Positions 5,206-52,593 of a stretch of DNA of 64,000 nucleotides are shown in pieces. This DNA comes from Bacilli bacterium (GTDB taxonomy: Bacteria > Bacillota_I > Bacilli_A > RFN20 > CAG-288). The position numbers and the translations under genes are program-made. The stretch spans positions 1,069,535-1,133,534 of the forward strand of contig JALCLG010000001.1 in NCBI GenBank assembly GCA_022647725.1. Direction: 5' to 3'. How positions within the stretch are numbered: the first letter of the stretch is position 1; each line of letters begins with the position of its first letter. The notes below the pieces were generated by a model, which was not told the DNA's origin, made no database searches, and was given only the letters and a program-made list of their open reading frames with translations.

Positions 5206-5296
5206 GGAGCAGTACTCAAGTGGTCCAAGAGGAGTCCCTGCTAAGGACTTAGTAGGAGTAATCCTAGCGCGAGTTCAAATCTCGCCTGCTCCGCCA
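5206..5296 (+). tRNA. tRNA-Ser (anticodon GCU), type II with a long variable arm and an encoded CCA
   Basis: The acceptor stem GGAGCAG pairs with CTGCTCC. The anticodon loop is CT-GCT-AA. There is a long variable arm, the T-arm is GCGAGTTCAAATCTCGC, and the 3' end is G-CCA. Confidence 0.85.
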
Positions 5297-33521: not shown

Positions 33522-34457
33522 ATGAACAATCTTGAAACAATTCGAAGCTTACTTAACGAGAAAGCTGCCTATGAGGCTAGATTACGCTTGCTTCCTTATG
33601 ATGGTTCTCCTGAAAAGAAGGAAATAGAAGGCAAACAGTATCTTTATGTGCGTAAACGTGAATTGGGGCGGAACACTTCCAAATATGTCGGACTTTACTC
33701 CGACGATCTTTTCCAGTTGCTTCTCAAAAACAATGCGGATCGGCGTAGCTATGAGAAACAAATACGGATCATCGATAAAAAGCTAGCTGAACTGGGTTAT
33801 TCTGATTCTGAACTTTCTCCGCGGGTAAAACAGAATATTGATTTTGCCCGTGCAAATCTGAAACCTCTCATCTATGACCAGGCCATCTTAGAGGGAGTTA
33901 CCACCACTTTTGCTCTTACCGATGCCATTATTGAAGGGGGAAGGGTGAAAGATATGTCAGTCAGGGATATCCAAAAGATTCTGAATCTGAAGCATGCCTG
34001 GGAGTTTATCCTGGATGAAGGTGTTTTGTCGGCTCCCAGCGATTATTATCTTCTATGCAATATTGCTAAATCTGTCAACGAAAATTTCTTTTCTGACGGC
34101 GGAATGATCCGCTCGGTTCCGGTGACAATCGGGGGCTCTTCCTATGTTCCTCCTATTCCTATGGAATCGGATGTCAAAGACACCATTCATTCTATTCTGG
34201 GATCCCAAGAGGATGGGGTTTCCGTTGCTATAGATCTTTGCCTCTATTGCATGAAAACACAGGTGTTTCCTGACGGCAATAAACGGGCTGCTGTTATTTT
34301 GGCGAATCATTATCTCATTGCCCATGGTTTGGGGATTATGGCCGTCAAGGATTCGGATGTTGATGAATTTAAGAAGGATTTGGTTGCCTATTATGAAGGA
34401 ACGGATGTCCAGTCTGTCAAAAAACTGCTGCATGACCGTGCCTTTCGAACCTTTTAA
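33522..34457 (+). CDS. Fic/Doc-family protein with a degenerate active-site motif
   Basis: The Fic core segment is AILEGVTTTFALTDAIIEGGRVKDMSVRDIQKILNLKHAW. The motif region QVFPDGNKRAAVILANHY resembles Doc-type HxFx(D/N)GNKR, but Gln replaces the catalytic His. The gene lies in an AT-rich islet. Confidence 0.55.
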   Translation: MNNLETIRSLLNEKAAYEARLRLLPYDGSPEKKEIEGKQYLYVRKRELGRNTSKYVGLYSDDLFQLLLKNNADRRSYEKQIRIIDKKLAELGYSDSELSPRVKQNIDFARANLKPLIYDQAILEGVTTTFALTDAIIEGGRVKDMSVRDIQKILNLKHAWEFILDEGVLSAPSDYYLLCNIAKSVNENFFSDGGMIRSVPVTIGGSSYVPPIPMESDVKDTIHSILGSQEDGVSVAIDLCLYCMKTQVFPDGNKRAAVILANHYLIAHGLGIMAVKDSDVDEFKKDLVAYYEGTDVQSVKKLLHDRAFRTF

Positions 34458-34487
34458 AGCCGGAGAAGCTGACGCAAGGAATCGATG

Positions 34488-34715
34488 TCACTGTAGGGAA
34501 TGTTTTGAGCATATAAAATAATTCGTGCGATACTTTTCCCAATCACTCATTTGTTTCTTGCTATGAGATAGTTTTTCGATAATTTCAAGCCTGTTGGATA
34601 ACTGGAGGCTTTTGCGTAGTTTCTTATTCTTTCTTTGAGACTCATTGCCTTGGATGTCATAGTAAGACCTCAAAATACCTTGCAAGGATTGTTGAAACAT
34701 GGAATTTTTAGGCAA
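34488..34715 (-). pseudogene. Remnant of the N-terminus of an AbiEii-like nucleotidyltransferase (truncated after about 75 aa)
   Basis: LRKSLQLSNRLEIIEKLSHSKKQ resembles the conserved AbiEii N-terminal helix (LQL..ERFLERLS.S.YK). It overlaps the upstream abiEi remnant by 8 nt in the same way that the intact pair overlaps. There is a stop after 75 codons. Confidence 0.3.
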
Positions 34716-35214
34716 AATCAGAAAGTTTCGCCATATCCTTGTCTTTTCCGGAAATATAATTCTTCAGGGCTGAAGCAACCGCTTTGGTATCTAAGCGATT
34801 CCGGCTTCGCACCCTATCGCAGAGAGTTCTTTCAGGATCGTAACAGCGGACCTCATTTCCAAAAGTGTTCTTTCGTGTCGTTAAGCCAATGGCATAGAGA
34901 TCTGGCTGGATATAGTAGCACTGGCATTTCCTGGCAAGTCTTTTTGGCAGGGAAGCATTGCTAGGAATGGTTAAGAAATGGATAAAAGGTGTTCGATTGG
35001 ATAAGCCATTTAAAAACAAGGCGGTTTCGTGAGAGAAAACGATCTTTGAGGAGCTTAACATTAAGGTCAGCATATCGTCTTCTACTTTGTTTGGAAGAAC
35101 ATATACTCCTTGGTGAGACCGACACAGCAAACCCTCTTTAACATATTTTGAGAGAAGCATTCTCGAAAAGCCAAGAGAAATGGCCTCTTTTGTTGTAATA
35201 ACATTGTTATTTTT
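34708..35214 (-). pseudogene. N-terminally truncated AbiEi-like antitoxin or regulator (decayed second copy)
   Basis: The frame encodes NNVITTKEAISLGFSRMLLSKYVKEGLLCRSHQGVYVLPN (the AbiEi_4 HTH) and then ...VFSHETALFLNGLS...VRCYDPERTLCD, which is homologous to gene 35455..36075. An in-frame TAG about 18 codons before the first Met leaves no start for the HTH region. Confidence 0.5.
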
Positions 35215-35454: not shown

Positions 35455-36075
35455 GTGCAAATGAAAGAAACGACCTATTACGATAAGATTAACAAAATCT
35501 TCAAAACCAGGGGACACTCCATTTCTCGGACCGAGATTGACCATGCCAACATTCCCTCTTGGTTCCTTTATGATTTCGTAAAAAGGAATAACCTGACCAA
35601 ACTAGCACCTGGTTTTTATACCTCCCCGCTTTATCAGGAAGATGACTGGTTTCTTCTTCAGCAGCGATATCCCAAGTTTGTCTTTTCAGGAATGTGTGCG
35701 TTATATCTGCTTCAACTCACAGACAAAATCCCTGACGTGATGACAGTCACCGCCCCACGGGGTTACCATCCTTCTCGGAAGAAGATTGATAATCTTTCAA
35801 TTCGCTATGAAACGAACTCTGAGATTTATTCTTTTGGCATAATTGAGAAAGAAACTCTTTTTGGGAACAAAGTCAGGGTGTACAGCCTAGAGAAGACTAT
35901 CTGCGATTTGATCAAGAACAGAGATGCTTATGATTCTGAGACTTTTATCAAAGCCCTTCGGATCTATGCGAAGAGACCTGATAAAGACGATGTTGCACTC
36001 TACCAATATGCTAGGCGCATAAAGATTGAGCTTCAGGTTTTTGAACTGATGGAAGTTATCCTCAATGAGAATTAA
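35455..36075 (+). CDS. AbiEi-family antitoxin or transcriptional regulator (type IV TA, abortive-infection AbiE system)
   Basis: The protein is 206 aa. It has an N-terminal winged HTH and a C-terminal segment VFSGMCALYLLQLTD...NKVRVYSLEKTICDLIKNRD typical of AbiEi. It overlaps the downstream gene by 11 nt. Confidence 0.7.
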   Translation: MQMKETTYYDKINKIFKTRGHSISRTEIDHANIPSWFLYDFVKRNNLTKLAPGFYTSPLYQEDDWFLLQQRYPKFVFSGMCALYLLQLTDKIPDVMTVTAPRGYHPSRKKIDNLSIRYETNSEIYSFGIIEKETLFGNKVRVYSLEKTICDLIKNRDAYDSETFIKALRIYAKRPDKDDVALYQYARRIKIELQVFELMEVILNEN

Positions 36076-36907
36076 TAAGGATTCCCTTGCTGCGAGAGCA
36101 AAGAACATCTCAGCGGAAAAAGGAGTATCTCCTACCGTCGTCTATGTACGGTTTTTCTTTGACGCGTTCCTTAAACGGCTTGCCTTATCTTCTTATCGAG
36201 ATACCTTTGTTTTGAAAGGCGGGCTTTATCTTTCTTCAGTCTTAGGAATCAGCAATCGATCTACTATCGATATTGATTTTCTGGCAACGAATTTTTCCTT
36301 AGAAGAAAGCGGCCTTCTAAAGGCTTTTCAGCAACTTTGCATGATGAATATTGGAGATAACGTCACCTTTGAATGTCTCCGAATGTCTCCTATCAGAATT
36401 GAAGATTCTTATGGCGGATTCCAGGTTGAGTTACTTGGCAGGCTGGAAAATATAAAGCAGCAATTTGGAATCGACATTGCAACAGGAGACCCAATAACTC
36501 CTTCGGAAATTATCTACGGATATCATTGCCTTGTTACCGGGGAAACAATTTCCCTACAAGCCTATAGTTTGGAAACGGTCATAGCAGAAAAACTCGAAAC
36601 CTTTCTTATCAGAGGAACGGCCAACAGCAGAAGCAAGGATTTTTACGACCTCTATATCCTTCATCAAATGCAAAGAGATTGTATTTCGCTGAATATACTG
36701 AAGAAAGCATTTGAGCAGACTTGCCACTACCGGCATTTCGCAATTAGCAAGAAAGAGGCAATCCGTTTGGCTGAATCTGTCAGGGATAACAGCCTTTGCC
36801 AAACACGATGGAAGGCATACCAGAAAAAAGCAAACTATTCTCAAGGCATTTCCTTTATTGATGTTATTGACGCTATCATCCAATGGATTGAGATTGCCTT
36901 GGATTAG
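36065..36907 (+). CDS. AbiEii/AbiGii-family nucleotidyltransferase toxin (DUF1814)
   Basis: FFDAFLKRLALSSYRDTFVLKGGLYLSSVLGISNRSTIDIDF is the hallmark N-terminus, with the GG/S and DxD nucleotidyltransferase fold. The protein is 280 aa. Confidence 0.8.
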   Translation: MRINKDSLAARAKNISAEKGVSPTVVYVRFFFDAFLKRLALSSYRDTFVLKGGLYLSSVLGISNRSTIDIDFLATNFSLEESGLLKAFQQLCMMNIGDNVTFECLRMSPIRIEDSYGGFQVELLGRLENIKQQFGIDIATGDPITPSEIIYGYHCLVTGETISLQAYSLETVIAEKLETFLIRGTANSRSKDFYDLYILHQMQRDCISLNILKKAFEQTCHYRHFAISKKEAIRLAESVRDNSLCQTRWKAYQKKANYSQGISFIDVIDAIIQWIEIALD

Positions 36908-37006: not shown

Positions 37007-38122
37007 ATGGATACAGATGTCCAGAAACTTGGCTTTGGCTTGATGCGTCTTCCCAAGCTCAGCGATGGCAAGACCATTGATGTCGAAGAAACCAAACGGA
37101 TGGTTGATCTCTTCCTGAAACGGGGCTTCAAGTATTTCGATACCGCTTATGTCTACGATAACGGCGGCAGCGAAAAAGCCATCAAAACAGCCCTGGTTGA
37201 CCGCTATCCGCGGTCTTCCTACTTCCTCACCACGAAACTCTGTGCCTGGACGGGCTGTCATGATGAAGTCAGTGCCAAGCAGGAGTTCTATACCTCACTG
37301 GAACGGACCGGAGCCGGCTATTTTGATTACTATCTGCTCCATGCCCTCCAGAGCAACAACTACACCAAGTACGACGAGTATCATCTTTGGGACTTCGTCA
37401 AAGAACTCAAAGCCAAAGGCCTGATCCGTCATTATGGCTTCTCTTTCCACGCCGATCCTGCTTTATTGGATAAGCTTCTAACCCTGCATCCGGATGTCGA
37501 TTTTGTCCAGCTGCAGCTGAATTATGCCGACTGGGAAGACCAAGGCATTCAGTCACGGGCCAACTATGAAGTGGCCCGGAAACATAACAAGCCTGTCATC
37601 GTGATGGAACCGGTCAAAGGCGGACTTCTGGTCAATCTGCCGACCCAGGCTTCCACGTTGCTGAAGACGGCAGAACCGGACATGTCCATTCCTTCCTGGG
37701 CCATCCGTTATGTGGCCTCGCTTCCGGGTGTCTTCATGGTTTTAAGCGGCATGTCCAACCTGACCCAGATGGAAAACAACACCTCCTATATGGAACACTT
37801 CAAGCCGCTGGATGCCAAGGAAGAGGCTCTGATCAAGAAAGTTCAGACGCTGCTCAAGGAAGACAAGATTCCCTGCACCGCCTGCCATTACTGCTGTGCC
37901 GGCTGTCCGAAACAGATTCCGATTCCGGAGATCTTCGCTCTCCGCAACAAGGTCTATGAGGGCTGTTATCTGGAGGATGTCATTTCCGAGTACCGGAAGA
38001 TCACTAAGGGCAAAGGCAAAGCCAGCGACTGCATCAAGTGCGGCCAGTGTGAAAGAGCCTGCCCGCAGCATATCCATATCCGTGAAAAGCTTGCCGAAGC
38101 CAGCAAGATCCTGGAAAAGTAG
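37007..38122 (+). CDS. Aldo/keto reductase-family oxidoreductase with a C-terminal 4Fe-4S ferredoxin-type cysteine cluster
   Basis: The AKR N-terminus is LGFGLMRLP...FDTAYVYDNGGSE. The C-terminus CTACHYCCAGCP...CIKCGQCERACP carries two Cx2Cx2Cx3CP motifs. Confidence 0.85.
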   Translation: MDTDVQKLGFGLMRLPKLSDGKTIDVEETKRMVDLFLKRGFKYFDTAYVYDNGGSEKAIKTALVDRYPRSSYFLTTKLCAWTGCHDEVSAKQEFYTSLERTGAGYFDYYLLHALQSNNYTKYDEYHLWDFVKELKAKGLIRHYGFSFHADPALLDKLLTLHPDVDFVQLQLNYADWEDQGIQSRANYEVARKHNKPVIVMEPVKGGLLVNLPTQASTLLKTAEPDMSIPSWAIRYVASLPGVFMVLSGMSNLTQMENNTSYMEHFKPLDAKEEALIKKVQTLLKEDKIPCTACHYCCAGCPKQIPIPEIFALRNKVYEGCYLEDVISEYRKITKGKGKASDCIKCGQCERACPQHIHIREKLAEASKILEK

Positions 38123-38127
38123 TCGGC

Positions 38128-39576
38128 ATGGAAATCAACGTACCAACCGATTTAGGAACCATCATCGGGAAGACCAAGAAAGGCGTCTCCTCCTTTTTAG
38201 GGATTCCTTATGCCAAGGCACCCTTCGGGAAGAACCGCTTTCTCCCGCCCGTGAAGGCCGAGCCGTTTGCCTCTCCTTTCAAGGCATTTCATTATCCTAA
38301 GGATCCGATTCAGTATCCGTTTGACGGCTCGACTCAGAACGAAGACTGCCTGGCACTGAATATCTTCCGGAAAGAAAACGGAACGGACAGAAAACCGGTC
38401 CTCTTCTTCATTTACGGCGGCAGCTATGCCACCGGCGGAAGCAAGCAGGTCGGTTTCAAGCATTCCCACCCTTTCTATGACGGCTCCACCTTTGTAAGGG
38501 AGCAGGATGTTCTAGTCGTCACCTTCAATTACCGCCTGAATGTCTTAGGCTTTCTGGATTTAAGGAAGGTCATTCCGGAAGCCACGCTGAATAACGGCTT
38601 ACGGGATACTGTGATGGCCTTAACCTGGGTGCACGACCATATCGTCGCTTTCGGCGGAGACCCTACGAACATCACCGTCTACGGCCAGTCGGCCGGAGCC
38701 TCCCTGTCGTTAGCCTTGCTTTCCGTCAAAGCCGCCAACCCGCTGTTTCAGAGAGTGATCCTGGAAAGCCCCTGTGTCGATGCGTTCTATACTCCGGAAC
38801 AGGCCCAGAGGATGAGCGAGGAGTGGCTGACGCTTGCCGGCCATCCGGATTCGCAGCAGCTGGAGACAATGACCAGCAAAGAGCTCGTCATCCACAATCA
38901 TCAGCTGGAAACCAACCTGATTAAGAATGAAAGAGTCGACTGCACGATCTGTCCCGTCGTGGATGGCGATATGCTCACCGCCAAACCCCGCGATACCTTG
39001 TCTTGCAACAAGAAGCCTCTTTTGATCGGCTTCAATCATGACGAAGCCAATGTCTTTACCTTCCTCTTGCACGGGAAAGTCAAACTCAACAATCCGGATT
39101 TCCTGCCGCAGACCCTTTTCAATCTCACCCCGGAAGAACAGCAGAAGGCAATCTCCTCCTTGTCCGGATTCCCCAGCGAAAGAACCTATGCTCAGCTGAT
39201 GACGGAACGGATGTTCATGTCGCCGATTGTTCATCTGGCCGACAGCTTTGCAACCGATGTTCCGGTCTACTTCTACCGCTATGATTATGTTTCGCCGTTG
39301 CTGAAAGGGCTCAAGCTGGATACCTGTCATTTCATTGAGATTCCGCTGGTCTGGAACAACCCCATCACCATCGGGCCTTTGTCCTTTGTCTCCTTTGACC
39401 GCAAACGGGCCAAGAGCTTAGGAAAACGGATCCGTCAGGCCTGGTGCTCGTTTAGCAAAGGCTCCGCTCCGGAAGCGGATTGGCCCCCTTATGACAACAC
39501 CCGTCCGGTCCGTCTCTTCAATAAGACGGATTCCCTGGTCCAGGATCCTTTCAGCCGCTTAGGTCTTTATCATTGA
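38128..39576 (+). CDS. Type-B carboxylesterase/lipase (para-nitrobenzyl-esterase-like)
   Basis: The nucleophile elbow is GQSAGASLS. The oxyanion region FIYGGSYATGG and the esterase_lipase family layout are present. The protein is 482 aa. Confidence 0.85.
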   Translation: MEINVPTDLGTIIGKTKKGVSSFLGIPYAKAPFGKNRFLPPVKAEPFASPFKAFHYPKDPIQYPFDGSTQNEDCLALNIFRKENGTDRKPVLFFIYGGSYATGGSKQVGFKHSHPFYDGSTFVREQDVLVVTFNYRLNVLGFLDLRKVIPEATLNNGLRDTVMALTWVHDHIVAFGGDPTNITVYGQSAGASLSLALLSVKAANPLFQRVILESPCVDAFYTPEQAQRMSEEWLTLAGHPDSQQLETMTSKELVIHNHQLETNLIKNERVDCTICPVVDGDMLTAKPRDTLSCNKKPLLIGFNHDEANVFTFLLHGKVKLNNPDFLPQTLFNLTPEEQQKAISSLSGFPSERTYAQLMTERMFMSPIVHLADSFATDVPVYFYRYDYVSPLLKGLKLDTCHFIEIPLVWNNPITIGPLSFVSFDRKRAKSLGKRIRQAWCSFSKGSAPEADWPPYDNTRPVRLFNKTDSLVQDPFSRLGLYH

Positions 39577-40376
39577 TGGACGACAACGAGGTCTTGAAGG
39601 CAAGGATCAACGAACTCAGTCAGCGGACCCTCAGCCAGTCCTATCTTTGCCATACCCCGTTTCTTTCCCTGTCGGAGCAGAATCTCTTCTTTCAGCTGGT
39701 ACAGACTAACGGCTCGCGTCAGGCGGCAACCTATTCCGGTGTCCGGTATGTCCTTTTCGGAGGCAACGACGACACGGAGCGGAAGATCCTCTATTTTCTT
39801 CCCGACTATCAGAAGGCCAGTGACCTGCTGAGCGACGAAAGCCAGGGCAAAGGGGTGCTGACCTGCCTGAAGATTGCGGCTAAGAATCCGAAGTTCAGCG
39901 ATACCCTGACCCATCGGGACTATCTCGGTGCCCTGATGTCGCTTGGCTATGACCGGTCGCTGTTTGGAGACATCCTCACCGATGGGACGACCGGGTATCT
40001 TTTCCTCGTTGCTTCCATCGTTGAGGACGTCTCGTCAAACCTCACCAAGATCCGGCATACGACCGTCACCTGTGAGACTTTGGCTCCCTCACTTTGTCCG
40101 TTCCATCCTCAGTTTGAGGAGCTTTCGGTGACGGCGGCCTCGGCCCGGGTCGACAGTCTGATCGGAGAGGTCTTCCATCTTTCCCGGCGTTCCGCTCAGG
40201 AAGTGATTGCCCAGGAAGGCGTCTTCGTCGACGGACTGACGGCCAAAAACAACGCCCTGCTTTTAAAAGACGGCCAAAGGGTGTCGGTCAAAGGATACGG
40301 AAAATTCATCTTTGTCGGAGGCGAGCATCCGACCCGGCGGGGAAGATTCGCCTATGCGATCAAGGTGTACCGATAA
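39576..40376 (+). CDS. YlmH-like RNA-binding protein with a C-terminal S4 domain
   Basis: The N-terminus FLSLSEQNLF...YVLFGGNDDTERKILYF and the C-terminal S4-like RVDSLIGEVFHLSRRSAQEVIAQEGVFVDG match the YlmH family. The ATG is at 39576, overlapping the upstream stop. Confidence 0.55.
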   Translation: MDDNEVLKARINELSQRTLSQSYLCHTPFLSLSEQNLFFQLVQTNGSRQAATYSGVRYVLFGGNDDTERKILYFLPDYQKASDLLSDESQGKGVLTCLKIAAKNPKFSDTLTHRDYLGALMSLGYDRSLFGDILTDGTTGYLFLVASIVEDVSSNLTKIRHTTVTCETLAPSLCPFHPQFEELSVTAASARVDSLIGEVFHLSRRSAQEVIAQEGVFVDGLTAKNNALLLKDGQRVSVKGYGKFIFVGGEHPTRRGRFAYAIKVYR

Positions 40377-40525: not shown

Positions 40526-41236
40526 CTAGTCAGCAAACGTCGCGGAAATCTCAAAGACGTCTTTGCCGTCTTTGGTTCCGATGAGATAGGCTTTGCTGTT
40601 TTCGTGTCCCATCCCTAAGGTCAGCACCTCATCGGCTTTGGCTTCCTGATGGAAAGCCAACGTGAAGGAGGTCAGTTTCTTCGTGACCATCCGCGAGCCG
40701 AAAGCATCCATGAACCAATCCGCATAGCGGGTGTTGGTGAGATGGCCGTTCAGGTCCAGTTCAGAGGTCAGGACTTTCCGGGTCGTGCTTTCTAAGACGG
40801 GGAGGGTATGGATCACCGGAAGGATTTCGCTTTCCTTATGGAAAGGGAAAGCCCGGATCAGGATGCCGTTCTCTTTGGGATCAATGGGTTTGCGGGTGTT
40901 CTTATCGATCAGCGTCCAGAGGGACTCGGCTTCGAGATAGGTTTTGCCTAAGGCACTCTTTAGAATATAGTATCGCGGGAAGATCACATGCACCCGTTTC
41001 TCAGGGTAGGTGATGAGTTTAACATGGTCGTCGTATTCGGGAAGAGAAGTGATCTTCAGGGATATTCGGGAAATGACCCACAGGAAACCCTGATCCAGGG
41101 TCTTCTCTCTCCCCATATGCAGCCTAGTCGTATCCTCAATGGAGATTTCTTCGATGGCACGGAGCAAGGAAGAAAGCTTCAGCTTCTGCTGATAGTCGCA
41201 GTCGGAGGCTAAGATCTTCCAAGGTAGGACAAACAT
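40526..41236 (-). CDS. Acyl-ACP thioesterase-family protein (hotdog fold)
   Basis: The protein is 236 aa. Its double hotdog organisation, with an N-terminal ...DCDYQQKLKLSSLLRAIEEISIEDT... and a second half ending NGHLTNTRYADWFMDAF, is consistent with the Acyl-ACP_TE family. Confidence 0.65.
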   Translation of the reverse strand: MFVLPWKILASDCDYQQKLKLSSLLRAIEEISIEDTTRLHMGREKTLDQGFLWVISRISLKITSLPEYDDHVKLITYPEKRVHVIFPRYYILKSALGKTYLEAESLWTLIDKNTRKPIDPKENGILIRAFPFHKESEILPVIHTLPVLESTTRKVLTSELDLNGHLTNTRYADWFMDAFGSRMVTKKLTSFTLAFHQEAKADEVLTLGMGHENSKAYLIGTKDGKDVFEISATFAD

Positions 41237-41238
41237 AG

Positions 41239-41499
41239 TCAGGCCGTGGCCTTAGCGTCAACTTTGCCCTTCACAAAACGGACAACATCGGCAATGGTAA
41301 TGAATTTCCGCATTTGCCGATCAGAGATCTTGATGTCATAGATTCCTTCCAGCTTGGAGATGATGAGGACAAAGCCCATGGAGTCAATGTTGGTTTCGGT
41401 ATTGATGACGGTCTCCATAGCCAGCGGTTTGTCCGTCAGTTCAGGAACATAGTCATGAATCAGCTTAATCAATGTGTCGTAGATATCCTTTTCTTCCAT
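41239..41499 (-). CDS. Acyl or peptidyl carrier protein (phosphopantetheine attachment site)
   Basis: The protein is 86 aa. NIDSMGFVLIISKLE carries the DSx Ser motif, as in DltC and ACP carriers. It sits between the ligase and the thioesterase. Confidence 0.7.
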   Translation of the reverse strand: MEEKDIYDTLIKLIHDYVPELTDKPLAMETVINTETNIDSMGFVLIISKLEGIYDIKISDRQMRKFITIADVVRFVKGKVDAKATA

Positions 41500-41501
41500 A
41501 C

Positions 41502-42887
41502 TTATTCTCCTTTTTGGGCTAATTGATAACGGATGATCTTTCCCGTTTTGGTCCGAGGAAGCGGGGTTTCGGAATATTCCACTCGGCTGATCTTGCTATA
41601 GAGGTCGCTGTCGGCGTTGAAACCTTGGACAGCTTTCTCGACGATAGGCTTGGCCTCAGGTCTCGGAAGATGGACAATCATGGCTAATTTTCCTTCGCGG
41701 ACGGTCAAAGCCAGATCATAAAGACCGCCAATATAACTGACCAGCTTCTGTTCGCCGATGTTGCAGTCGAATTTGGTGCCGTTAGCAAGAACGGCGATGT
41801 CGTCGACCCGCCCTAAGATATGAAGATTCCCATCGGCATCCAGATAGCCTCTGTCACTGGTCTTCAGCCAGCCGTCATGAACGGCCTCTTCGGTGGCTTT
41901 CGGGTTGTTGTAGTAGCCTTTCATAAGACAGGAGGAGTGAATCGAAATGGTGCCGTCCGCCTCCTGGCGGAAGGTATCTTCGGGGCAGGGGGTCATGGCA
42001 AAGGGATCCTTTGCTCCGACCGATATGGCGACCCCGGATGACGTTTCTGTCAAGCCGTAGCCGAAGGCAACTCGTTTGCCGAGAGCCTGGAAAGCCTGGA
42101 TCATTGAAAGGCTCAGCGGTCCGGCTCCGACTAGGATGGTCGTGAGTTCCGGGTTGATGGCTTTGTTCATCAAAAGGAAGCCCGCCAGCGAAGGGATGAC
42201 AGGCAGAATCGTGGGTTTGAAGAAGATAACATCCTGAGCCATCGTTTTCATTCCGCTTCCGAAGGCGATGCTGGCATGGTAACAAAGCGGCCAAAGGAAG
42301 GTGCAGACAAAACCGAAGACATGGCTTAATGGGATCAAGGAAAGGATGATATCTTGTTCGCCGCAAGGAAGACAGGACTGGCCATTGAAACTGGAGGATA
42401 GCAAAGAGGCTGAGGTTAAGACACAGGCTTTGGGTATTCCCGAAGTACCGGAGGTAAAGAAAAGAATATCTCCCTCACCTTTCTCATCACAAGATAATGA
42501 GGGTTTCAGGACATTCTTTAAAAAAGCAATTTCTTCTTCCTCAAAGGAAGCATCAATGATGACTTCTTCAATATTGCAATGGGAGATCATCACGGCCATC
42601 TTATCGATGCTTTCCATAGGATCAATCAGCAGAACACGTTTTCCTGCTAAGACCGCAGCCATGAAATTGGCAGCCATTTCCGGTGATTTAGCTTGAATGA
42701 TTGCTACTGAAGAATAGCCTTGCCTGGCAAATTCCTTTTCCTTTTCCCAAATCCGGTCGGCCCATTCTTTGCCGCTCATCAGAACCATTTTTCCATCTTT
42801 TGAAAAACGGAAAAGGTCTGGCCTGTTTTCCTTGGAGACGGTTAGGATAAGCTCGCGGAAGCTGTGGAACTTTTTAACATTGCTCAT
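41502..42887 (-). CDS. AMP-dependent ligase (ANL superfamily; DltA-like or acyl-carrier-protein ligase)
   Basis: The adenylation motifs are FFTSGTSGIPKACVL, GYGLTETSSG, YNNPKAT...WLKTSDRGYLD, GRVDDIAV and PRTKTGKIIR. At 461 aa the protein is compact like DltA. Confidence 0.85.
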   Translation of the reverse strand: MSNVKKFHSFRELILTVSKENRPDLFRFSKDGKMVLMSGKEWADRIWEKEKEFARQGYSSVAIIQAKSPEMAANFMAAVLAGKRVLLIDPMESIDKMAVMISHCNIEEVIIDASFEEEEIAFLKNVLKPSLSCDEKGEGDILFFTSGTSGIPKACVLTSASLLSSSFNGQSCLPCGEQDIILSLIPLSHVFGFVCTFLWPLCYHASIAFGSGMKTMAQDVIFFKPTILPVIPSLAGFLLMNKAINPELTTILVGAGPLSLSMIQAFQALGKRVAFGYGLTETSSGVAISVGAKDPFAMTPCPEDTFRQEADGTISIHSSCLMKGYYNNPKATEEAVHDGWLKTSDRGYLDADGNLHILGRVDDIAVLANGTKFDCNIGEQKLVSYIGGLYDLALTVREGKLAMIVHLPRPEAKPIVEKAVQGFNADSDLYSKISRVEYSETPLPRTKTGKIIRYQLAQKGE

Positions 42888-42915
42888 GGCATTAGTATAC
42901 GTAAAACAGAAACTC

Positions 42916-42937
42916 TTAGCAAGGCTTGGAATGCTAA
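42916..42937. promoter_or_regulatory. Inverted repeat TTAGCA-N10-TGCTAA in the divergent promoter region of the ligase operon and the oxidoreductase operon; a -10 TATAAT lies at about 42973
   Basis: The half-sites are perfect 6-bp inverted repeats. The -10 TTATAAT lies upstream of ATG 43017, which has a GGGAGG RBS. Confidence 0.35.
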
Positions 42938-43016
42938 ACGTGAAAGCTCTTTTATGTTTTGGCTTTTCATGTTATAATAACCGAGTCAGTTGCGAACAAA
43001 AAGGGAGGCCTTAACT

Positions 43017-44402
43017 ATGGCTGAAAACGAGACGAAGACTGTCGAGCCTTCAAAGGATGCCAGAATCTGCATCATCGGCGGAGGTCCTGCTGGTTTATCG
43101 GCCGCAATGTATCTCGAAAAGAAGGGATACAAGAACTATGTTATTTATGAAAAGAGTGACCATGTCGGCGGCAAGTGCCATTCCCCGGTCTATAAAGGCA
43201 AACGTTTTGAGGAAGGCGCCATTATGGGTGTCCCGTCCTACTACGCTGTTCACGATATTGAATTGTTTGCCGGCGTCAGCCATGACGACGGACCGAAGCT
43301 CAACCGTGACTTCAAGAACCTCAAGGGCGAGGTCATCCATCCTTTTGATCCGAAGAAGTTCTGGAGACTTCCGCATCTTCTCAAACTGAAGAAGCAGATG
43401 AAGCGCTTAGGTGAGCTCCTTGAGACCAAATACAAAGGTTATGATGTCAATGGTCACCGTGGCGTTGCCCAGGGCAAGTACATCGGTGATGATTGCACTC
43501 CGGATCGGAAGCATATCGAAGGCGAGAATCCGAATCTGAAGGATCTCAGCATGCCGTTCAAGGATTTCTGCGAGATGAACAAGGTTCCGCTTGTTCAGGA
43601 AGTCTGGTCGGGTCCGTTCACGGCTTTCGGTTATGGCTTCTTCGATGAGATTCCGGCTGCCTATGCTCTCAAGTATTTGGATTTCCAGACCTGCATGAAC
43701 TTCGTCAAGTGCAACCTTTGGACTTGGAAGGATGGCACGCAGTCAATCTATGAAGCTCTTAACAGCAAGCTGATCCATCAGGCCACCTTAAACAGCAATA
43801 TCACCAAGGTTGTCCGTACCGACACGAACGTCACTGTTACCGTCAACGGCAAGGATGAAGTCTTCGATAAGCTGATTGTCACCGCTCCGCTCCAGTACTT
43901 CCCGGAGTATGCCGATGCCACCGCCGAAGAAAAGGAACTCTTCTCCAAGATCGACTTCGAACGTTACGATGTCCTGGCTTTGACGATGAAGGAAGGCCAG
44001 TATCCGGTCGATTCCTATTACATCCTGGCCAACATGGTTCCGGAACGTCTCGGCCATCTGATGATTTACTATCGTCGCTGGAAGGATGAGCCGGATCAGG
44101 CCATCACGACCTATGCCTTACGCAATCACAAGGGCTCCAAAGAAGTTCCTTATGAAGAATGCAAGAAGACCGTCCTGGAAGACATCGTTACCTATAAGAA
44201 CGAATACGACAAAGTCTTTGATGAGCATTCCTGGTATTACTTCCCGCATGTCTTCTCGGAGGATTATGCGGCTGGCTGGTACGATAAGGTCGAAGGAATG
44301 CAGGGACAGAGATGCACTTACTACGCTGGCGAAATCATGTCGTTCGGCGATATGGATGAAACCTGCGAATATTCTCGTGAATTAGTTGGCCGTTTCTTCT
44401 AA
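43017..44402 (+). CDS. FAD-dependent oxidoreductase, amine-oxidase/protoporphyrinogen-oxidase-like fold
   Basis: The N-terminal Rossmann fold ICIIGGGPAGLSAAMYLEKKGY...YEKSDHVGGK is present. The protein is about 460 aa. The true start is ATG 43017 with a GGGAGG RBS. The track ORF starts at an upstream TTG at 42990. Confidence 0.6.
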   Translation: MAENETKTVEPSKDARICIIGGGPAGLSAAMYLEKKGYKNYVIYEKSDHVGGKCHSPVYKGKRFEEGAIMGVPSYYAVHDIELFAGVSHDDGPKLNRDFKNLKGEVIHPFDPKKFWRLPHLLKLKKQMKRLGELLETKYKGYDVNGHRGVAQGKYIGDDCTPDRKHIEGENPNLKDLSMPFKDFCEMNKVPLVQEVWSGPFTAFGYGFFDEIPAAYALKYLDFQTCMNFVKCNLWTWKDGTQSIYEALNSKLIHQATLNSNITKVVRTDTNVTVTVNGKDEVFDKLIVTAPLQYFPEYADATAEEKELFSKIDFERYDVLALTMKEGQYPVDSYYILANMVPERLGHLMIYYRRWKDEPDQAITTYALRNHKGSKEVPYEECKKTVLEDIVTYKNEYDKVFDEHSWYYFPHVFSEDYAAGWYDKVEGMQGQRCTYYAGEIMSFGDMDETCEYSRELVGRFF

Positions 44403-44406
44403 AATT

Positions 44407-45942
44407 ATGGGATTTTACAAAGATCATTACGATGCCATCGTCATTGGCGGAGCCCTCTCCGGAATGGCGTGCGCTTTGACCTTAGCCAATAAGGGCAAGA
44501 GCGTTCTCATCCTGGAACGGCATAACCTTCCCGGCGGCATTGCGACGTCCTTTGTCCGTGGCGGCGTTGAAATGGAGGCCACTCTTCATGAGATGATGTC
44601 CATCGGACCCGAGAATCAGCCGCTGAAGATCCGTACATTCTTCGACGAGATGGGTGTCAAGATCAACTGGCTCCGTGTCCCGGAAGCCTATCGGATTTCG
44701 GTGCCGGATGAGAAAATCGATATCACTCTTCATGCCGGGTTGGAGACAATGGCCAAGGAGATTGATGCCCAGTATCCGGGAACCTATAGTGAAGTCAAAC
44801 GGCTGATGGATCTCTGCGCCACGGTCTACAATTCCGTCAATGTCCTTTCCGTCCATCCGATGAGCAAGCCGATGATGCTAGTGAAGCACAATGCTTTTGT
44901 AAGGACCTGCGGTTATTCCGCCAAGGAAGTCATGGATACCTTTAAGCTTCCTCAGGAAGTCAAAGACATTCTCTCCGCTTATTGGATCTATGTCGGCAAT
45001 AAGATCTCAGACTTGCCCTTTACCGTCTATGCCGTATTGATGGCGGATTACTTCATCGGCGGCAGCTATGTCTGCGCTGATTTCTCCTTTGAGATGGCCG
45101 TCAAGATGGCCAAGCGCTGCGAAGAGCTGGGTGTCCAGATCGAGTACCGTCAGGAAGTCTCCAAGATTCTTGTCAAGAACGGCCACGTCTATGGCGTCAT
45201 CACCCAACGCGGTGATGAAATCCATGCCAATTACGTTTCCTGCTCCGCCTATCCCAATACCTGCTATGCCAAGATGATTGAGCCCCAAAGCGAAGTCCCC
45301 GCCAAGGCCATCCAGTCGGTCAATGCCCGACGGATGTCCGTCAGCTGCTTCTCCGTCGTCCTGCTTTTGGATAAGAAGCCGGAAGAACTCAACATCAAGG
45401 ATTATTCCGTCTTTACCTGCGACGGCAAGATGGATCTTGAGAAGATCTATCAGCAGCTGAAGACGAAAGGCCCGTATGACTATCTCACCACCATCTGCCT
45501 CAACTATGCCAATCCGAAGTCCGTTCCGGAAGGCATGACTTCTCTTTCCATCACGACCCTGCCGCTTCCGGATGGCTTCATGGATGTCAAAGCCGATGAC
45601 TACTTTGCCCTGAAACGCCAGATTGCCCGGACCATGATCGAATCCATCTCCCAGAAGCTGGGCGTCAACCTCTTTGACCACATCCTTGAAGTCGAAGTCG
45701 AGACCCCGATGACGATTGCTCACTACACCTCGGATTACCGGGGCGGCATCTATGGCTATTCGCATTCGATGGATGACCATATCGTGGCCCGTCTGCAGAT
45801 GAGCGAAGATGAAAACTATATCGGCGGCTTAGCCTTCTCCGGAGCGCATGCGATCTCCGGCGATGGCATGGCCCCGGTCATCACCAACGGCCGCAAGGCT
45901 GCCAAGACGCTTTTGGATATGATGGCGAAGGAGGGCTGCTAA
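44407..45942 (+). CDS. FAD-dependent oxidoreductase of the phytoene-desaturase (CrtI)/NAD(P)-binding family
   Basis: The N-terminus is YDAIVIGGALSGMACALTLANKGKSVLILERHNLPGGIATSF. The length of about 512 aa and the C-terminal pattern are typical of CrtI-like enzymes. Confidence 0.6.
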   Translation: MGFYKDHYDAIVIGGALSGMACALTLANKGKSVLILERHNLPGGIATSFVRGGVEMEATLHEMMSIGPENQPLKIRTFFDEMGVKINWLRVPEAYRISVPDEKIDITLHAGLETMAKEIDAQYPGTYSEVKRLMDLCATVYNSVNVLSVHPMSKPMMLVKHNAFVRTCGYSAKEVMDTFKLPQEVKDILSAYWIYVGNKISDLPFTVYAVLMADYFIGGSYVCADFSFEMAVKMAKRCEELGVQIEYRQEVSKILVKNGHVYGVITQRGDEIHANYVSCSAYPNTCYAKMIEPQSEVPAKAIQSVNARRMSVSCFSVVLLLDKKPEELNIKDYSVFTCDGKMDLEKIYQQLKTKGPYDYLTTICLNYANPKSVPEGMTSLSITTLPLPDGFMDVKADDYFALKRQIARTMIESISQKLGVNLFDHILEVEVETPMTIAHYTSDYRGGIYGYSHSMDDHIVARLQMSEDENYIGGLAFSGAHAISGDGMAPVITNGRKAAKTLLDMMAKEGC

Positions 45943-45943
45943 C

Positions 45944-47122
45944 ATGAAAGTCAAATCGTTCTTCACGGATGTCGGCGGCGCTGACCGCGTCACCAAGCGA
46001 CGTGAGCAGCTGTTTGATTCGGCCAGCCCGAAAGAGGATTTCTCCGATCCTATCAATAAGGTCGCCAAAGAGCTGCATCCGGATCCGCTGGATGTCAAAG
46101 TCACGAAGGTCGAAGATGTCTCTCCGACCGCCCGCAAATACACGTTTGTCGCAGTCAATGGAGTTTTGCCGCCGTTCCAGGCGGGACAGTTTGTTTCCCT
46201 GCAGTTCAAGATCGGAAACACCCTGACCTGCCGTCCGTATTCGATCTGCTCCGCGCCGTATCAGGCCCGCGGGAAGGATCCCTTCTTTGAGATCACTGTC
46301 CGTAACGGCAAGGCCGATGGCTTTGTCGCCAACTGGATCTATTCATCCTTAAAGGAAGGGATGATCCTGAAAGCCTGTCTGCCGTTAGGCCATTTCTTCA
46401 TCGAAGAGCTCCGTGACAGCAAGAACGTCGTCGCTTTGGCAGGCGGTTCTGGCATCACGCCGTTCTATTCGATGGCTCAGGAGATTGCCCATGGCACCTT
46501 GGATGCCGACTTGACCATCCTCTACGGTTCCAACACCACGGACGACATCATCCTCAACAAGGAGATCTCAGCCATCCATTCCGACCGGGTCCATTTCGTC
46601 AATGTCATTGCCAAGGATCCCAATTATCCGGGAGAGAAGGGCTTCATCAACCGTGATCTGATCAAGAAATATTCCAAGGGCGATACCAGTTACTTCGTCT
46701 GCGGACCGTTACCGATGTATCAGTTCATCGCCAAAGAGCTAGCTGCTCTTGAGATTCCGTTACGTCGGATCCGGATGGAAGTCTTCGGTGCGCCGAAGGA
46801 TGTCTCCAAAGCGGAAGGCTATCCGATTGAAATGCTGGATAAGACCTTCAAGCTGACGGTTGTCCGGGGCGTGCAGAAGGATGTCATCGACTGCTTTGCC
46901 AAGGAGCCTCTGGCCGTGGCCATCGAGCGGACGGGCATTCCGTTCCTGACCGATTGCCGGAGCGGCGAATGCGGCTTCTGCCGCAGCGAGCTTCTCAGCG
47001 GCAACGTCTTCGTCCCGCAAGTCGGCGACGGCAGACGGGCGGCCGATAAGGAAGCCGGCTACTGCCATCCGTGTGCGACTTACCCCTTAAGCGACATCAC
47101 CCTGAAGATTCCGATCATCTAG
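45944..47122 (+). CDS. Ferredoxin-NAD(P)+ reductase-like flavoprotein with a C-terminal 2Fe-2S ferredoxin domain
   Basis: The FAD-binding motif is RPYSICS. The NAD-binding motif is ALAGGSGITPF. The C-terminus DCRSGECGFCRS...C supplies the plant-type 2Fe-2S Cys ligands. Confidence 0.75.
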   Translation: MKVKSFFTDVGGADRVTKRREQLFDSASPKEDFSDPINKVAKELHPDPLDVKVTKVEDVSPTARKYTFVAVNGVLPPFQAGQFVSLQFKIGNTLTCRPYSICSAPYQARGKDPFFEITVRNGKADGFVANWIYSSLKEGMILKACLPLGHFFIEELRDSKNVVALAGGSGITPFYSMAQEIAHGTLDADLTILYGSNTTDDIILNKEISAIHSDRVHFVNVIAKDPNYPGEKGFINRDLIKKYSKGDTSYFVCGPLPMYQFIAKELAALEIPLRRIRMEVFGAPKDVSKAEGYPIEMLDKTFKLTVVRGVQKDVIDCFAKEPLAVAIERTGIPFLTDCRSGECGFCRSELLSGNVFVPQVGDGRRAADKEAGYCHPCATYPLSDITLKIPII

Positions 47123-47308
47123 ACTCTTGGCCTGCCTGTCCTTTGGGGACGGGCAGGCTTTTTGATTGGAGCAAAGCTTTCGGGCCTTCTGGCAGGGACC
47201 GTTTCTGTCCTCCTATGCTTCTTTCTTGCATAGATGGTCATAAAAGAAAGGAAACGAGCAAGGCAATCGCTTACATTTGCTTCAAAACTTTCTGAAAGCC
47301 CTACAAAC

Positions 47309-51100: not shown

Positions 51101-51170
51101 TCAAATGACGTCAAATGAAATCAAATAAGAAATTAAGCCCAAAATGGACGATAGCGTCGATACCGATTGG
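51101..51170. repeat. Direct repeat A (GTCAAATGAAATCAA motifs plus the 3'-terminal coding region of the AlbA_2 gene)
   Basis: This copy is about 84% identical over roughly 62 nt to the copy at 52682..52743. Confidence 0.6.
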
Positions 51171-52593
51171 AATTTTGGGTACCGGCATATTTCAGCAGTC
51201 CTTTCTCTACGCAGCGAATTAAAAGCCGAGAAATGGTTGCTGCCTCTTTGCTACTGAAATTTAATCTTGTACGGACATCCTCATTGGAGGTGAGTTTGTC
51301 ATTGACTTCGTTATAACAGGAAAGAACATAGCAGGTATTGATACGGTCTTCTTCAGACCAATCCTTACGATTTTCATAATGACGGATGATGGTTCTTGAA
51401 TAATCGTTCTCAGCCACAAATACGGGTGATGGTTCTTTTATCTCGGCCATAGCTTCTTCAATCCGATCAAAGCCTGAGCTACGTTGCTCACAAATGGTGA
51501 CGCTGCGGAGAAAAGCAGCCATTTTTTCGTTTCGGCAGTGAGTGACGGTATCAATGAAACGAGCCGGATCAATCAAAGGCTTCCCTGGGGTTGTCATTTC
51601 AATGCGGAAAGGAAATACTTCAATAAGTGACTGGATACCCAAATGACTATAATCTTGATGGATAATGAGATTGCCAAGCATTTCACGTAAAGCTTCTTCG
51701 GGGAATAAGGGAAAAGTCTTTCTTAATCCGCCTTCTATTTTTTCTACCTGCGGGATTACTCCTCTAAGGAAACGGAGAATGTCTTCAAAAGATGCTGCAT
51801 ACCCCTTGGAAAAAGTTTCGTCTCCGATCGTGGACGTCCTTGAGTTACTGGAATACTTTAATATTCTCACTCCTTTTTCCTGAAGCCCTGGGAAGGATGA
51901 AAAATCATTAGCAAAAAGCAAGGCTCCCATATTTGTTATTGAAAAGGAGCCGGCATCATCTTTAACGATAAATCCTTCATCAAGAAAACTTTCAATAATA
52001 CGATCCATGCTGGTGGGTAAAGAAATTTTCTTTAAACGGAAATAGGCATTGAAGTCAAGCAAGGCTGCGACCTCTTCGGGTTTTAGGTGTGATTTGGAAA
52101 GACTGGTTTCAAAACTTTTTCCTCGAATTGCGGAAAATAGTTCTACTTCTCTGGCGGGAACGTCTTGCTTCTTTTTGAGGCTCGAACCGACACGGTAGTA
52201 ACTCATATTCTCAAAGCAAGTTGGTTCATAGAAGGCAGCAGGAATTTCTAAAAGTGATACTGGTTTTCCTTCTGAATAAAAGAAACGATAAGGGCGTAGA
52301 GCAAGGTTTGGTGAAAGCAAACGATTGATCCAATTTAATAGAAGCTCGCCGCTTTTCCTGGCTTCAAGGATGTTAAAAGAGGTTCCGATGACGTCGTGCT
52401 TTTCTCCGTCCTGTATTCCCCAAACAAGATAACCGCATTCCTTTCCAGCAATGGCGGCTTCGTTACTTAAAGCCGAAATATACTGGCCGAGGAGTTCTGG
52501 TGAAGCGTTGCTATCTTTGAATTCGACCCATTCACATTCACCTTTCTTACTTCTTAGCTCATCCACGAGTTCTTTATAATAGGAATCTTCCAT
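51133..52593 (-). CDS. AlbA_2 (Schlafen-like) DNA-binding domain plus divergent-AAA/HATPase-like protein (often annotated as RecG-related transcriptional regulator)
   Basis: The N-terminus E...WVEFKDSNASPELLGQYISALSNEAAIAGKECGYLVWGIQDG matches the AlbA_2 domain. The protein is 486 aa. Confidence 0.6.
   Translation of the reverse strand: MEDSYYKELVDELRSKKGECEWVEFKDSNASPELLGQYISALSNEAAIAGKECGYLVWGIQDGEKHDVIGTSFNILEARKSGELLLNWINRLLSPNLALRPYRFFYSEGKPVSLLEIPAAFYEPTCFENMSYYRVGSSLKKKQDVPAREVELFSAIRGKSFETSLSKSHLKPEEVAALLDFNAYFRLKKISLPTSMDRIIESFLDEGFIVKDDAGSFSITNMGALLFANDFSSFPGLQEKGVRILKYSSNSRTSTIGDETFSKGYAASFEDILRFLRGVIPQVEKIEGGLRKTFPLFPEEALREMLGNLIIHQDYSHLGIQSLIEVFPFRIEMTTPGKPLIDPARFIDTVTHCRNEKMAAFLRSVTICEQRSSGFDRIEEAMAEIKEPSPVFVAENDYSRTIIRHYENRKDWSEEDRINTCYVLSCYNEVNDKLTSNEDVRTRLNFSSKEAATISRLLIRCVEKGLLKYAGTQNSNRYRRYRPFWA

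Follow-up and report, generated by a model that had tools for sequence, protein, structure and literature searches.

A conserved six-gene locus encoding a homolog of polyunsaturated fatty acid isomerase is a candidate biohydrogenation module of gut- and rumen-type Bacillota

The polyunsaturated fatty acid isomerase (PAI) of Cutibacterium acnes, the one linoleic acid isomerase of known structure, uses FAD to turn linoleic acid into trans-10,cis-12 conjugated linoleic acid (CLA), and its crystal structures were reportedly described by Liavonchanka et al. in 2006. In the classical biohydrogenation route of Butyrivibrio, formation of a conjugated diene by a linoleate isomerase is followed by NADH-linked reduction by a CLA reductase, and a further reduction leads to stearate. 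The intermediates of this route are trans-11 fatty acids, whereas PAI makes the trans-10 form, and no carrier protein is mentioned in the biochemical literature on the classical route that we examined. Here we describe a locus that shares the habitat and the proposed order of steps of the Butyrivibrio route. It resides in a 64,000-nucleotide stretch of DNA (hereafter the window; contig JALCLG010000001.1, positions 1,069,535 to 1,133,534) from a genome labeled Bacilli bacterium, and it encodes a PAI homolog, two further redox proteins, an adenylate-forming ligase, an acyl carrier protein (ACP), and a thioesterase. We hold it somewhat probable that this locus is a self-contained module by which an uncultured anaerobic bacterium of the gut or rumen type detoxifies polyunsaturated fatty acids through biohydrogenation, a chemistry that we infer from the homology and linkage of its genes.

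Previous work leaves room for such a module. The end product of C. acnes is trans-10,cis-12 CLA; neither trans-10 18:1 nor stearate is made (PMC7339423). This species, the only cultured trans-10 producer, was judged too rare to account for the trans-10 shift (PMC7339423). The reductases of biohydrogenation are still called poorly characterized (PMC4478896, PMC13188719), and an earlier genomic study found the Butyrivibrio reductase in no database (PMC4478896). PAI homologs have been identified by BLAST in rumen Lachnospiraceae, Oscillospiraceae (Limivicinus), and Anaerovoracaceae, both as genes and as transcripts, and have been correlated with milk fatty acids in studies that consider the isomerase alone (PMC10019597, PMC13188719). 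Because C. acnes, which carries the isomerase gene alone, stops at CLA, additional genes that accompany the isomerase in Bacillota are candidates for the steps that follow isomerization.

The six genes are arranged as two divergent, close-packed operons of three genes each, spanning positions 40526 to 47122 of the window. The first-pass annotation had placed six open reading frames (ORFs) with characteristic domains at these positions, and all six were confirmed by ORF reading and by profile searches of the proteins against Pfam and NCBIfam. Gaps between genes are 1 to 4 nt throughout the cluster, and the thioesterase, carrier protein, and ligase genes on the minus strand are separated by 2 nt each. 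The features of the locus, in window coordinates, are as follows.

40526–41236, minus strand: acyl-ACP thioesterase of the FatA/FatB family, 236 amino acids (aa), with Acyl-ACP_TE and Acyl-ACP_TE_C domains
41239–41499, minus strand: acyl carrier protein, 86 aa, with the NIDSMGF serine and matches to NCBIfam ACP models
41502–42887, minus strand: compact ANL adenylate-forming ligase, 461 aa, with an AMP-binding domain and the core motifs
42888–43016: divergent intergenic region, 129 bp, with a palindrome, promoter-like sites, and a ribosome-binding site
43017–44402, plus strand: homolog of the PAI-family polyunsaturated fatty acid isomerase, an FAD enzyme, 461 aa, matching 2B9W
44407–45942, plus strand: flavoenzyme of the CrtI/CrtD/CrtISO fold, 511 aa, by NCBIfam and AlphaFold model
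45944–47122, plus strand: FNR-type flavoprotein with a C-terminal plant-type 2Fe-2S domain, 392 aa, by Pfam domains and motifs
47129–47159, plus strand: intrinsic-terminator-like hairpin with a 14-bp stem and a T run

None of the six proteins reaches any NCBIfam equivalog cut-off. In public records they presently carry labels such as “FAD-dependent oxidoreductase”, “protoporphyrinogen oxidase”, “phytoene dehydrogenase-like protein”, “ferredoxin-NADP reductase”, and “long-subunit acyl-CoA synthetase”, and these generic names hide the proposed role of the cluster. Identical copies of the proteins occur in a metagenome-assembled genome (MAG) named “Bacilli bacterium” at NCBI and in several JGI metagenome contigs of up to 2.08 Mb.

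The first protein encoded on the plus strand is, judged by its sequence, a full-length PAI homolog and a close member of that family. A phmmer search of the PDB returned entry 2B9W, titled “putative aminooxidase”, with an E value of 2.4e-139, and the next match stood at 5e-07. The alignment covers chain residues 4 to 423 in two stretches (4–134 and 139–423), wherein 54% of 415 aligned positions are identical. We take entries 2B9W to 2BAC to be the crystal structures of PAI from Propionibacterium (Cutibacterium) acnes, a three-domain enzyme. The first-pass annotation had mentioned the C. acnes isomerase as a comparable flavin enzyme; the relationship proves to be stronger than that, one of full-length homology and not of analogy. 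The extent and identity of this match link the locus to microbial linoleic acid biohydrogenation, so that, as far as the first step is concerned, the earlier statement that the gene set matches no pathway known to the annotator goes too far. The PAI family has few members: a search of 1.84 billion representatives gave 209 representative clusters with E ≤ 1e-30.

The sequence features of PAI are well maintained among proteins encoded at related loci, whose collection is described below. In an alignment of PAI with 52 cluster-linked homologs, 104 positions are nearly invariant. Residues G13, G15, G18, E37, R88, F168, and F193 (PAI numbering) are present in all 52 homologs, and the FAD-binding Rossmann motif is kept. 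The homolog would thus be expected to convert a methylene-interrupted diene to a conjugated diene. A conserved insertion of 22 to 23 aa (GVxxGRYxG...RE...GxNPNL) is also found between PAI residues 134 and 139 in the window protein and in 50 of the 52 homologs, and in the window it corresponds to positions 43461 to 43538 (residues 149–174 of the PAI homolog). This insertion is missing from C. acnes PAI and from the homolog at locus L088. Docking of a carrier protein is one possibility for its function.

What distinguishes this locus from that of C. acnes is the company of the isomerase gene. In the window the gene heads an operon with genes for a CrtI-like protein and a reductase, opposite the ligase, ACP, and thioesterase genes, whereas the C. 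acnes PAI gene is solitary: its neighbors are an unknown gene, an acetyltransferase gene, and gyrB, and none of the CrtI-like, FNR, ligase, ACP, or thioesterase genes is found beside it. A PAI homolog from Eggerthellaceae is likewise solitary.

The linkage of the six genes was evaluated in other genomes. A ligase profile built from 14 homologs was scanned against one genome per species of bacteria and archaea, the best 80 loci were kept, and the six window proteins were compared with these by tblastn, with counts limited to loci that have enough flanking DNA. The hosts, almost all MAGs, are gut and rumen Clostridia (Lachnospiraceae, Oscillospiraceae/Ruminococcaceae, and Anaerovoracaceae), Erysipelotrichaceae (Solobacterium), and other Bacilli; the families with published rumen PAI-like genes are the same as those that host the loci found here. 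The thioesterase gene lies beside the ligase and ACP genes in 69 of 71 evaluable loci, and a small carrier-protein ORF falls between the ligase and thioesterase genes in about 75 of 77. In 56 of 62 loci the gene next to that of the ligase, in divergent orientation, encodes a PAI homolog, and one further locus has its PAI homolog at a distance of 5 kb. Genes for the CrtI-like and FNR proteins occur as a pair: both are present in 36 of 47 loci, neither in 11, and a single one in none. The six-gene set was also recovered in L088, a spore-forming clostridial MAG, around a PAI-proximal homolog, and in L090, from a MAG labeled Sphaerochaetaceae.

The genes that flank the cluster in the window, namely those for AKR-Fer4, carboxylesterase, and YlmH-like proteins on one side and rhaBAD on the other, occur in no related locus. 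Because no flanking gene recurs, the conserved unit consists of exactly the six genes. The notion that two unrelated operons have become neighbors by chance is scarcely credible, as nothing was found that speaks for it and it is refuted by a divergent order that holds over several families while all flanks differ. The divergent and paired arrangements recorded in the neighborhood search thus uphold the view that the two operons are one unit, and the scenario without co-conservation fails.

The minus-strand operon has the gene content that had been noted for it, a ligase, a carrier protein of the DSM type, and a thioesterase, and this is borne out by domains and motifs. The thioesterase exceeds the Pfam gathering scores for both Acyl-ACP_TE (PF01643; 67.3 bits versus 23.7) and Acyl-ACP_TE_C (PF20791; 39.7 versus 21); its closest solved structures are the bacterial acyl-ACP thioesterases 2ESS and 4GAK, and 2OWN is another PDB relative. 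The fact that this protein belongs to the FatA/FatB acyl-ACP family supports a fatty acyl cargo, and we propose that it releases the product from the carrier protein. The carrier protein bears its phosphopantetheine serine in the sequence NIDSMGF. It scores 20.0 bits with the PP-binding model, just below the cut-off of 20.8, and matches NCBIfam acyl carrier protein models at E 2e-11, under their equivalog cut-offs.

The ligase matches the Pfam AMP-binding model with 104 bits and lies far under all NCBIfam equivalog cut-offs, the best models being MenE, long-chain fatty-acid-CoA ligase, and Aas (91 bits for Aas against a cut-off of 1221). When 14 homologs are aligned, its A10 lysine and core motifs (G-Y-G-L-T-E-T, T446, G449, and K450) show no variation. 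The first-pass annotation had called this enzyme DltA-like, a label that must be withdrawn: the nearest PDB entries are MenE, 4-coumarate-CoA ligase (4CL), and FadD13, at E about 1e-20, and DltA is absent from the 23 PDB matches with E ≤ 1e-15. No gene for an MBOAT protein (DltB) or for DltD is present in the window cluster. A variant of the D-alanylation (Dlt) system was rejected on these two grounds. We propose instead that the protein is a fatty acid:ACP ligase, for which the dedicated ACP gene located 2 nt downstream, and retained in nearly all loci, is circumstantial evidence. By this arrangement, modification would take place on a substrate bound to the carrier protein.

The second protein of the plus-strand operon is, according to its predicted structure, an enzyme of the CrtI fold that stands outside every named subfamily. 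Its AlphaFold model (pLDDT 77.5) finds as its top PDB match the gamma-carotenoid desaturase 4REP (TM score 0.76, E 1.6e-25), and CrtI itself (4DGK) is the fourth structural match, ahead of amine oxidases. Homologs are 55 to 80% identical across taxa. Enzymes of this fold desaturate (CrtI), isomerize with reduced FAD (CrtISO), or saturate a conjugated double bond (RetSat). The protein shares the fold of CrtI, CrtD, CrtISO, and RetSat and differs from them in that its scores are below half of the cut-offs, carotenoid genes are absent, a reductase of the FNR-2Fe2S type is its partner, and its host is an anaerobe. Genes for phytoene or squalene synthase, or other carotenoid genes, were not found within 10 kb of the locus in the species of the window or at related loci. 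The lack of a carotenoid context that had been noted earlier is thereby confirmed, and a carotenoid or squalene locus was rejected because the synthase is absent and the CrtI models are far under their cut-offs.

The third plus-strand protein comprises FAD_binding_6, NAD_binding_1, and Fer2 domains in that order, all above Pfam cut-offs, and its translation contains the motifs RPYS, GGSGITP, CGP, and CX4CX2C...C. The closest structures are benzoate dioxygenase reductase (1KRH) and P450 reductase domains. This is the architecture of PaaE, GbcB, and Hcr, with the difference that a partner oxygenase or hybrid-cluster protein is not encoded nearby; the cluster lacks genes of the Rieske, di-iron, and P450 types. 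We propose that the FNR-like protein is the electron donor to the CrtI-like enzyme. Three observations, namely the constant NAD(P)H-type FNR-2Fe2S partner that comes without an oxygenase, the gut and rumen Bacillota hosts, and an upstream enzyme that would yield a conjugated diene, suggest that the CrtI-like protein is a conjugated-diene (CLA) reductase.

The same protein could act in other ways, and two alternatives hinge on its activity. It might be a second isomerase, redox-neutral and either cis/trans or positional, that functions as CrtISO does, with the FNR-like protein keeping its flavin reduced, in which case there would be no net reduction and products such as trans,trans-CLA would result. 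CrtISO needs reduced flavin and carries out no net electron transfer, and over the full length of the protein the score with the NCBIfam carot_isom model (TIGR02730; 101.8 bits, cut-off 586.9) is close to that with crtI_fam (TIGR02734; 103.8 bits, cut-off 238.1). We nevertheless regard two isomerases as quite unlikely, because a stoichiometric NAD(P)H reductase that is always co-encoded (36 loci with both genes, none with one) exceeds the need for catalytic priming, and because another putative C=C reductase, often encoded beside the cluster along with HypA and HypB and described below, suits a reductive pathway. The other alternative is the biosynthesis of a specialized lipid, wherein the ligase and ACP would prime a chain, the CrtI-like enzyme would desaturate it oxidatively, the PAI-like enzyme would bring its double bonds into conjugation, and the thioesterase would free a conjugated polyene acid for use as a pigment or signal. 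CrtI-fold enzymes are classically desaturases, and loading, modification on a carrier, and release is a common biosynthetic logic, as in the JamABC and TtuABC systems. We consider this very improbable, since genes that would build a chain, such as those for a synthase or ketosynthase, are not linked to the cluster, the fermentative gut anaerobes that host it offer no obvious electron acceptor for a CrtI-type desaturase, and the partner protein is a reductase of the NAD(P)H type.

A reductive module of the kind that we favor can be placed beside several described systems. JamA/B/C, TtuA/B/C, and the plant stearoyl-ACP desaturase share with it an ACP that is loaded by a ligase or by fatty acid synthase, a redox enzyme that acts on acyl-ACP, electrons supplied through FNR and 2Fe-2S ferredoxin, and a thioesterase of family PF01643. 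Desaturation in those systems relies on O2 and on desaturases of the di-iron or membrane type, whereas the present locus encodes flavoenzymes of the amine-oxidase/CrtI superfamily whose proposed action is reductive and anaerobic. In this respect, the proposed module mirrors the plant plastid system run in reverse. The CLA-HY/CLA-DH/CLA-DC/CLA-ER system of Lactiplantibacillus plantarum serves the same purpose in gut bacteria, taking linoleic acid via conjugated and trans intermediates to monoenes (PMC13365329). Its enzymes are different, being a hydratase, an SDR, an acetoacetate-decarboxylase-like isomerase, and an enone reductase that act on free acids through hydroxy and oxo intermediates. 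Hydratase (MCRA), SDR, CLA-DC, and enone reductase domains were not found among the six genes or their neighbors.

In some relatives the cluster is joined by genes that may extend this pathway. A de novo search for co-conserved flanking families, noisy from spurious ORFs, surfaced HypA/HypB and a protein of ~900 aa with Fer4, Fer4_20, and Pyr_redox_2 domains. At 20 of the 80 loci, as well as at L088 and L090, the gene for the large protein directly adjoins the cluster in one or two copies, and it is accompanied there by HypA, one or two HypB, and sometimes TetR genes. It is absent from the window. Its locations are as follows.

L090, 3261–14618: IsrA-like protein
L088, 12109–16667: IsrA-like protein
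L019, L021, L028, L031, L033, L037, L038, L043, L052–L054, and L056: IsrA-like protein
L057, L059, L066, L070, L078, L081, L082, and L085: IsrA-like protein

The fullest form is seen in L090, wherein HypA, HypB, HypB, thioesterase, ACP, and ligase genes are on one strand and those for the PAI-like, CrtI-like, FNR, and large proteins are on the other. The large protein resembles the product of the IsrA operon of Acetobacterium wieringae in size, in domain set, and in the HypA/HypB/TetR company that it keeps (PMC10134865). IsrA is a putative nickel-dependent reductase of isoprene, itself a conjugated diene, and its homologs occur with HypA in 73%, HypB in 56%, and TetR in 21% of cases (PMC10134865). 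The IsrA-like protein could therefore be a nickel-dependent enzyme that reduces one more C=C bond, providing the last step to stearate. It is a matter of speculation that the isomerase, the CrtI-like/FNR pair, and the IsrA-like system correspond to the three classical steps of one isomerization and two reductions.

In the mechanism that we propose, the PAI homolog would use its FAD to shift a methylene-interrupted cis,cis-diene, for example that of linoleic acid, to give CLA. The flavoenzyme of the CrtI/CrtISO/RetSat fold would then saturate one bond of the conjugated diene to give trans-18:1, and the FNR-like protein, translated directly after it, would relay electrons to it from NAD(P)H by way of FAD and the 2Fe-2S center. 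The ANL ligase would adenylate the free fatty acid and charge the dedicated ACP, acyl-ACP would be the substrate of the reduction step at least, and the FatA/B-type thioesterase would free the product. In the relatives that encode it, the IsrA-like nickel/iron-sulfur flavoprotein, together with HypA and HypB, could carry the pathway on to stearate. The general idea put forward in the first-pass annotation, that flavoenzymes isomerize or saturate a fatty acyl chain, holds up, with the reaction itself predicted from the sequences.

Several observations weigh against this mechanism. No named model of the CrtI family gives the CrtI-like protein a score that reaches its curated cut-off, and the fold of this protein can fit a desaturase, an isomerase, or a saturase alike. 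FNR-2Fe2S proteins of the architecture found here usually serve oxygenases. The ligase, ACP, and thioesterase (25–45% identity across loci) diverge much faster than the flavoenzymes (55–70%), and Butyrivibrio, the classical biohydrogenator, is not represented among the best 80 loci. The isomerase may also use the free acid. R88 and F193 were reportedly placed by Liavonchanka et al. at the channel mouth of PAI, where they would gate substrate entry and hold the fatty acid carboxylate, and both are invariant in the cluster-linked homologs. An acyl-phosphopantetheine substrate is still conceivable, because the carboxyl end presumably lies at this channel mouth.

The use of a free acid matters most for loci that have only four of the genes, a PAI homolog opposite the ligase, ACP, and thioesterase, and no gene for a CrtI-like or FNR protein within ~8 kb (L008–L014, L017, L024, L039, L048, and L084). 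Their hosts are mainly Lachnospiraceae-type MAGs, one of which is labeled Roseburia hominis. At about 485 aa, the PAI homologs of these loci exceed the others in length, and the carrier proteins encoded with them have diverged strongly, some having ES in place of DS at the serine. No alternative reductase is encoded near two of them (L009 and L011), where the neighbors are ATPase and transporter genes. The weakest point of our reading is that the ligase, ACP, and thioesterase genes stay with the isomerase gene at 11 loci where the CrtI-like/FNR pair is missing; if the isomerase uses the free acid, our reading gives these three proteins no role there.

These loci are the basis of a further alternative, the remodeling of exogenous polyunsaturated fatty acids for the membrane of the cell itself. 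The isomerase, acting alone or together with the CrtI-like enzyme, would turn toxic cis,cis-dienes into trans-containing acids that the ligase and an auxiliary ACP feed to the PlsX/PlsY/PlsC acyltransferases, leaving the thioesterase as an editing or overflow valve. Auxiliary ACPs for exogenous fatty acids exist in Firmicutes, AcpB of Enterococcus being an example. This alternative draws on the ligase, ACP, and thioesterase genes remaining with the isomerase in the 11 of 47 loci that lack the CrtI-like and FNR genes, and on the retention of the putative carboxylate-binding residues, by which isomerization may precede loading. That a thioesterase gene closes the ligase operon in 69 of 71 loci argues for release rather than incorporation, and no acyltransferase is co-conserved with the cluster. 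We judge incorporation to be unlikely, though not negligibly so, and retain carrier-linked biohydrogenation as the preferred reading. Separately, an outlier locus (L015, 7314–13979) contains a related ligase-ACP-thioesterase trio and no PAI homolog; genes for an MBOAT acyltransferase and an unknown 449-aa protein lie upstream and two HypB genes lie downstream.

The region between the two operons was inspected for control elements. The start of the PAI homolog was assigned to the ATG at 43017, which is preceded by an AGGGAGG ribosome-binding site, and the TTG at 42990 given by the mechanical ORF listing was dropped in its favor. An extended −10 element for the plus-strand operon (TGTTATAAT, 42970–42978) and a promoter-like match for the minus-strand operon (42922–42894), which overlaps the palindrome, are both consensus matches only. 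The palindrome that the first-pass annotation had pointed out, TTAGCA-N10-TGCTAA, is indeed present at 42916 to 42937, and its role as a shared operator is not supported by conservation. Some perfect 6 + 6 inverted repeat occurs in 31 of 46 intergenic regions compared, the TTAGCA-N10-TGCTAA sequence itself recurs in none of the 45 homologous regions, and a conserved operator was therefore rejected. We give the palindrome no weight, because it is unshared among homologous regions and similar repeats are expected by chance. The FNR gene is preceded by the ribosome-binding site GAAGGAGG. The plus-strand operon is closed, ahead of rhaB, by the terminator-like stem, which has 9 G-C pairs among its 14 bp and is followed by TTTTTGATT. 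An Rfam scan of the window revealed no riboswitch or other RNA element near the cluster; the sole match in the window is an 88-nt tRNA gene at 5206 to 5293.

The surroundings of the cluster in the window include several genes of other kinds. Upstream, at 37007 to 40376, is an operon-like trio whose stops and starts overlap, encoding an aldo-keto reductase (AKR) with a 4Fe-4S domain, a 482-aa protein of the carboxylesterase/lipase fold, and a YlmH-like S4 RNA-binding protein. The lipase fold made the trio an attractive partner for a fatty acid module, but this trio and the downstream rhamnose genes were rejected as parts of the system, since none occurs in any related locus. Further upstream (35455–36907 and 33522–35160), an AbiEii toxin-like gene overlaps the gene of its upstream 206-aa partner in the lowest-GC stretch of the window (0.41). 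DUF6788 and Fic genes near the AbiEii-like gene vary among near-identical contigs of the same species (L002–L006), and the region looks like a strain-variable defense islet. Downstream of rhaD, on the minus strand (51133–52593), lies a gene for a 486-aa Schlafen-AlbA_2/HATPase_c_4 protein, in place of which the same-species contig L006 has IS66-family transposase genes (1–1791). In L001 and L004, an extra AAA_14/DUF4143 ATPase gene is located between the thioesterase and YlmH-like genes. In L001, the three flavoenzyme genes and rhaA are fragmented, and assembly errors are a more likely cause than decay because an unrelated gene is also affected.

In the full-text literature, a body that leaves most subscription journals outside its coverage, no paper was found that describes this gene cluster or a CLA reductase family. 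After sixty years of work, even the isomerases of biohydrogenation are only partly known. Biohydrogenation sets the fatty acids of milk and meat, is a source of bioactive CLA isomers in the human gut, and is the process behind milk fat depression induced by diet. The six-gene unit offers candidate reductase genes to express and assay, and metagenomic markers that are better than the isomerase alone.

A wider picture may be drawn, tentatively and as one that could well prove wrong, in which carrier-dependent biohydrogenation is practiced by abundant, mostly uncultured Bacillota of the gut and rumen. A ligase would place dietary linoleic or linolenic acid on a private ACP, a PAI-type isomerase and an FNR-driven “CLA reductase” of the CrtI fold would convert it to a trans-10-type monoene, and, where the cluster is extended, a nickel-dependent IsrA-like reductase would take this product to stearate. 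If the assignments made here are true, the flavin-dependent, ACP-linked reduction of a conjugated diene would be possible new enzymology, and the missing reductase genes would have been identified, together with the organisms responsible for the trans-10 shift and hence for the milk fat depression that it causes.

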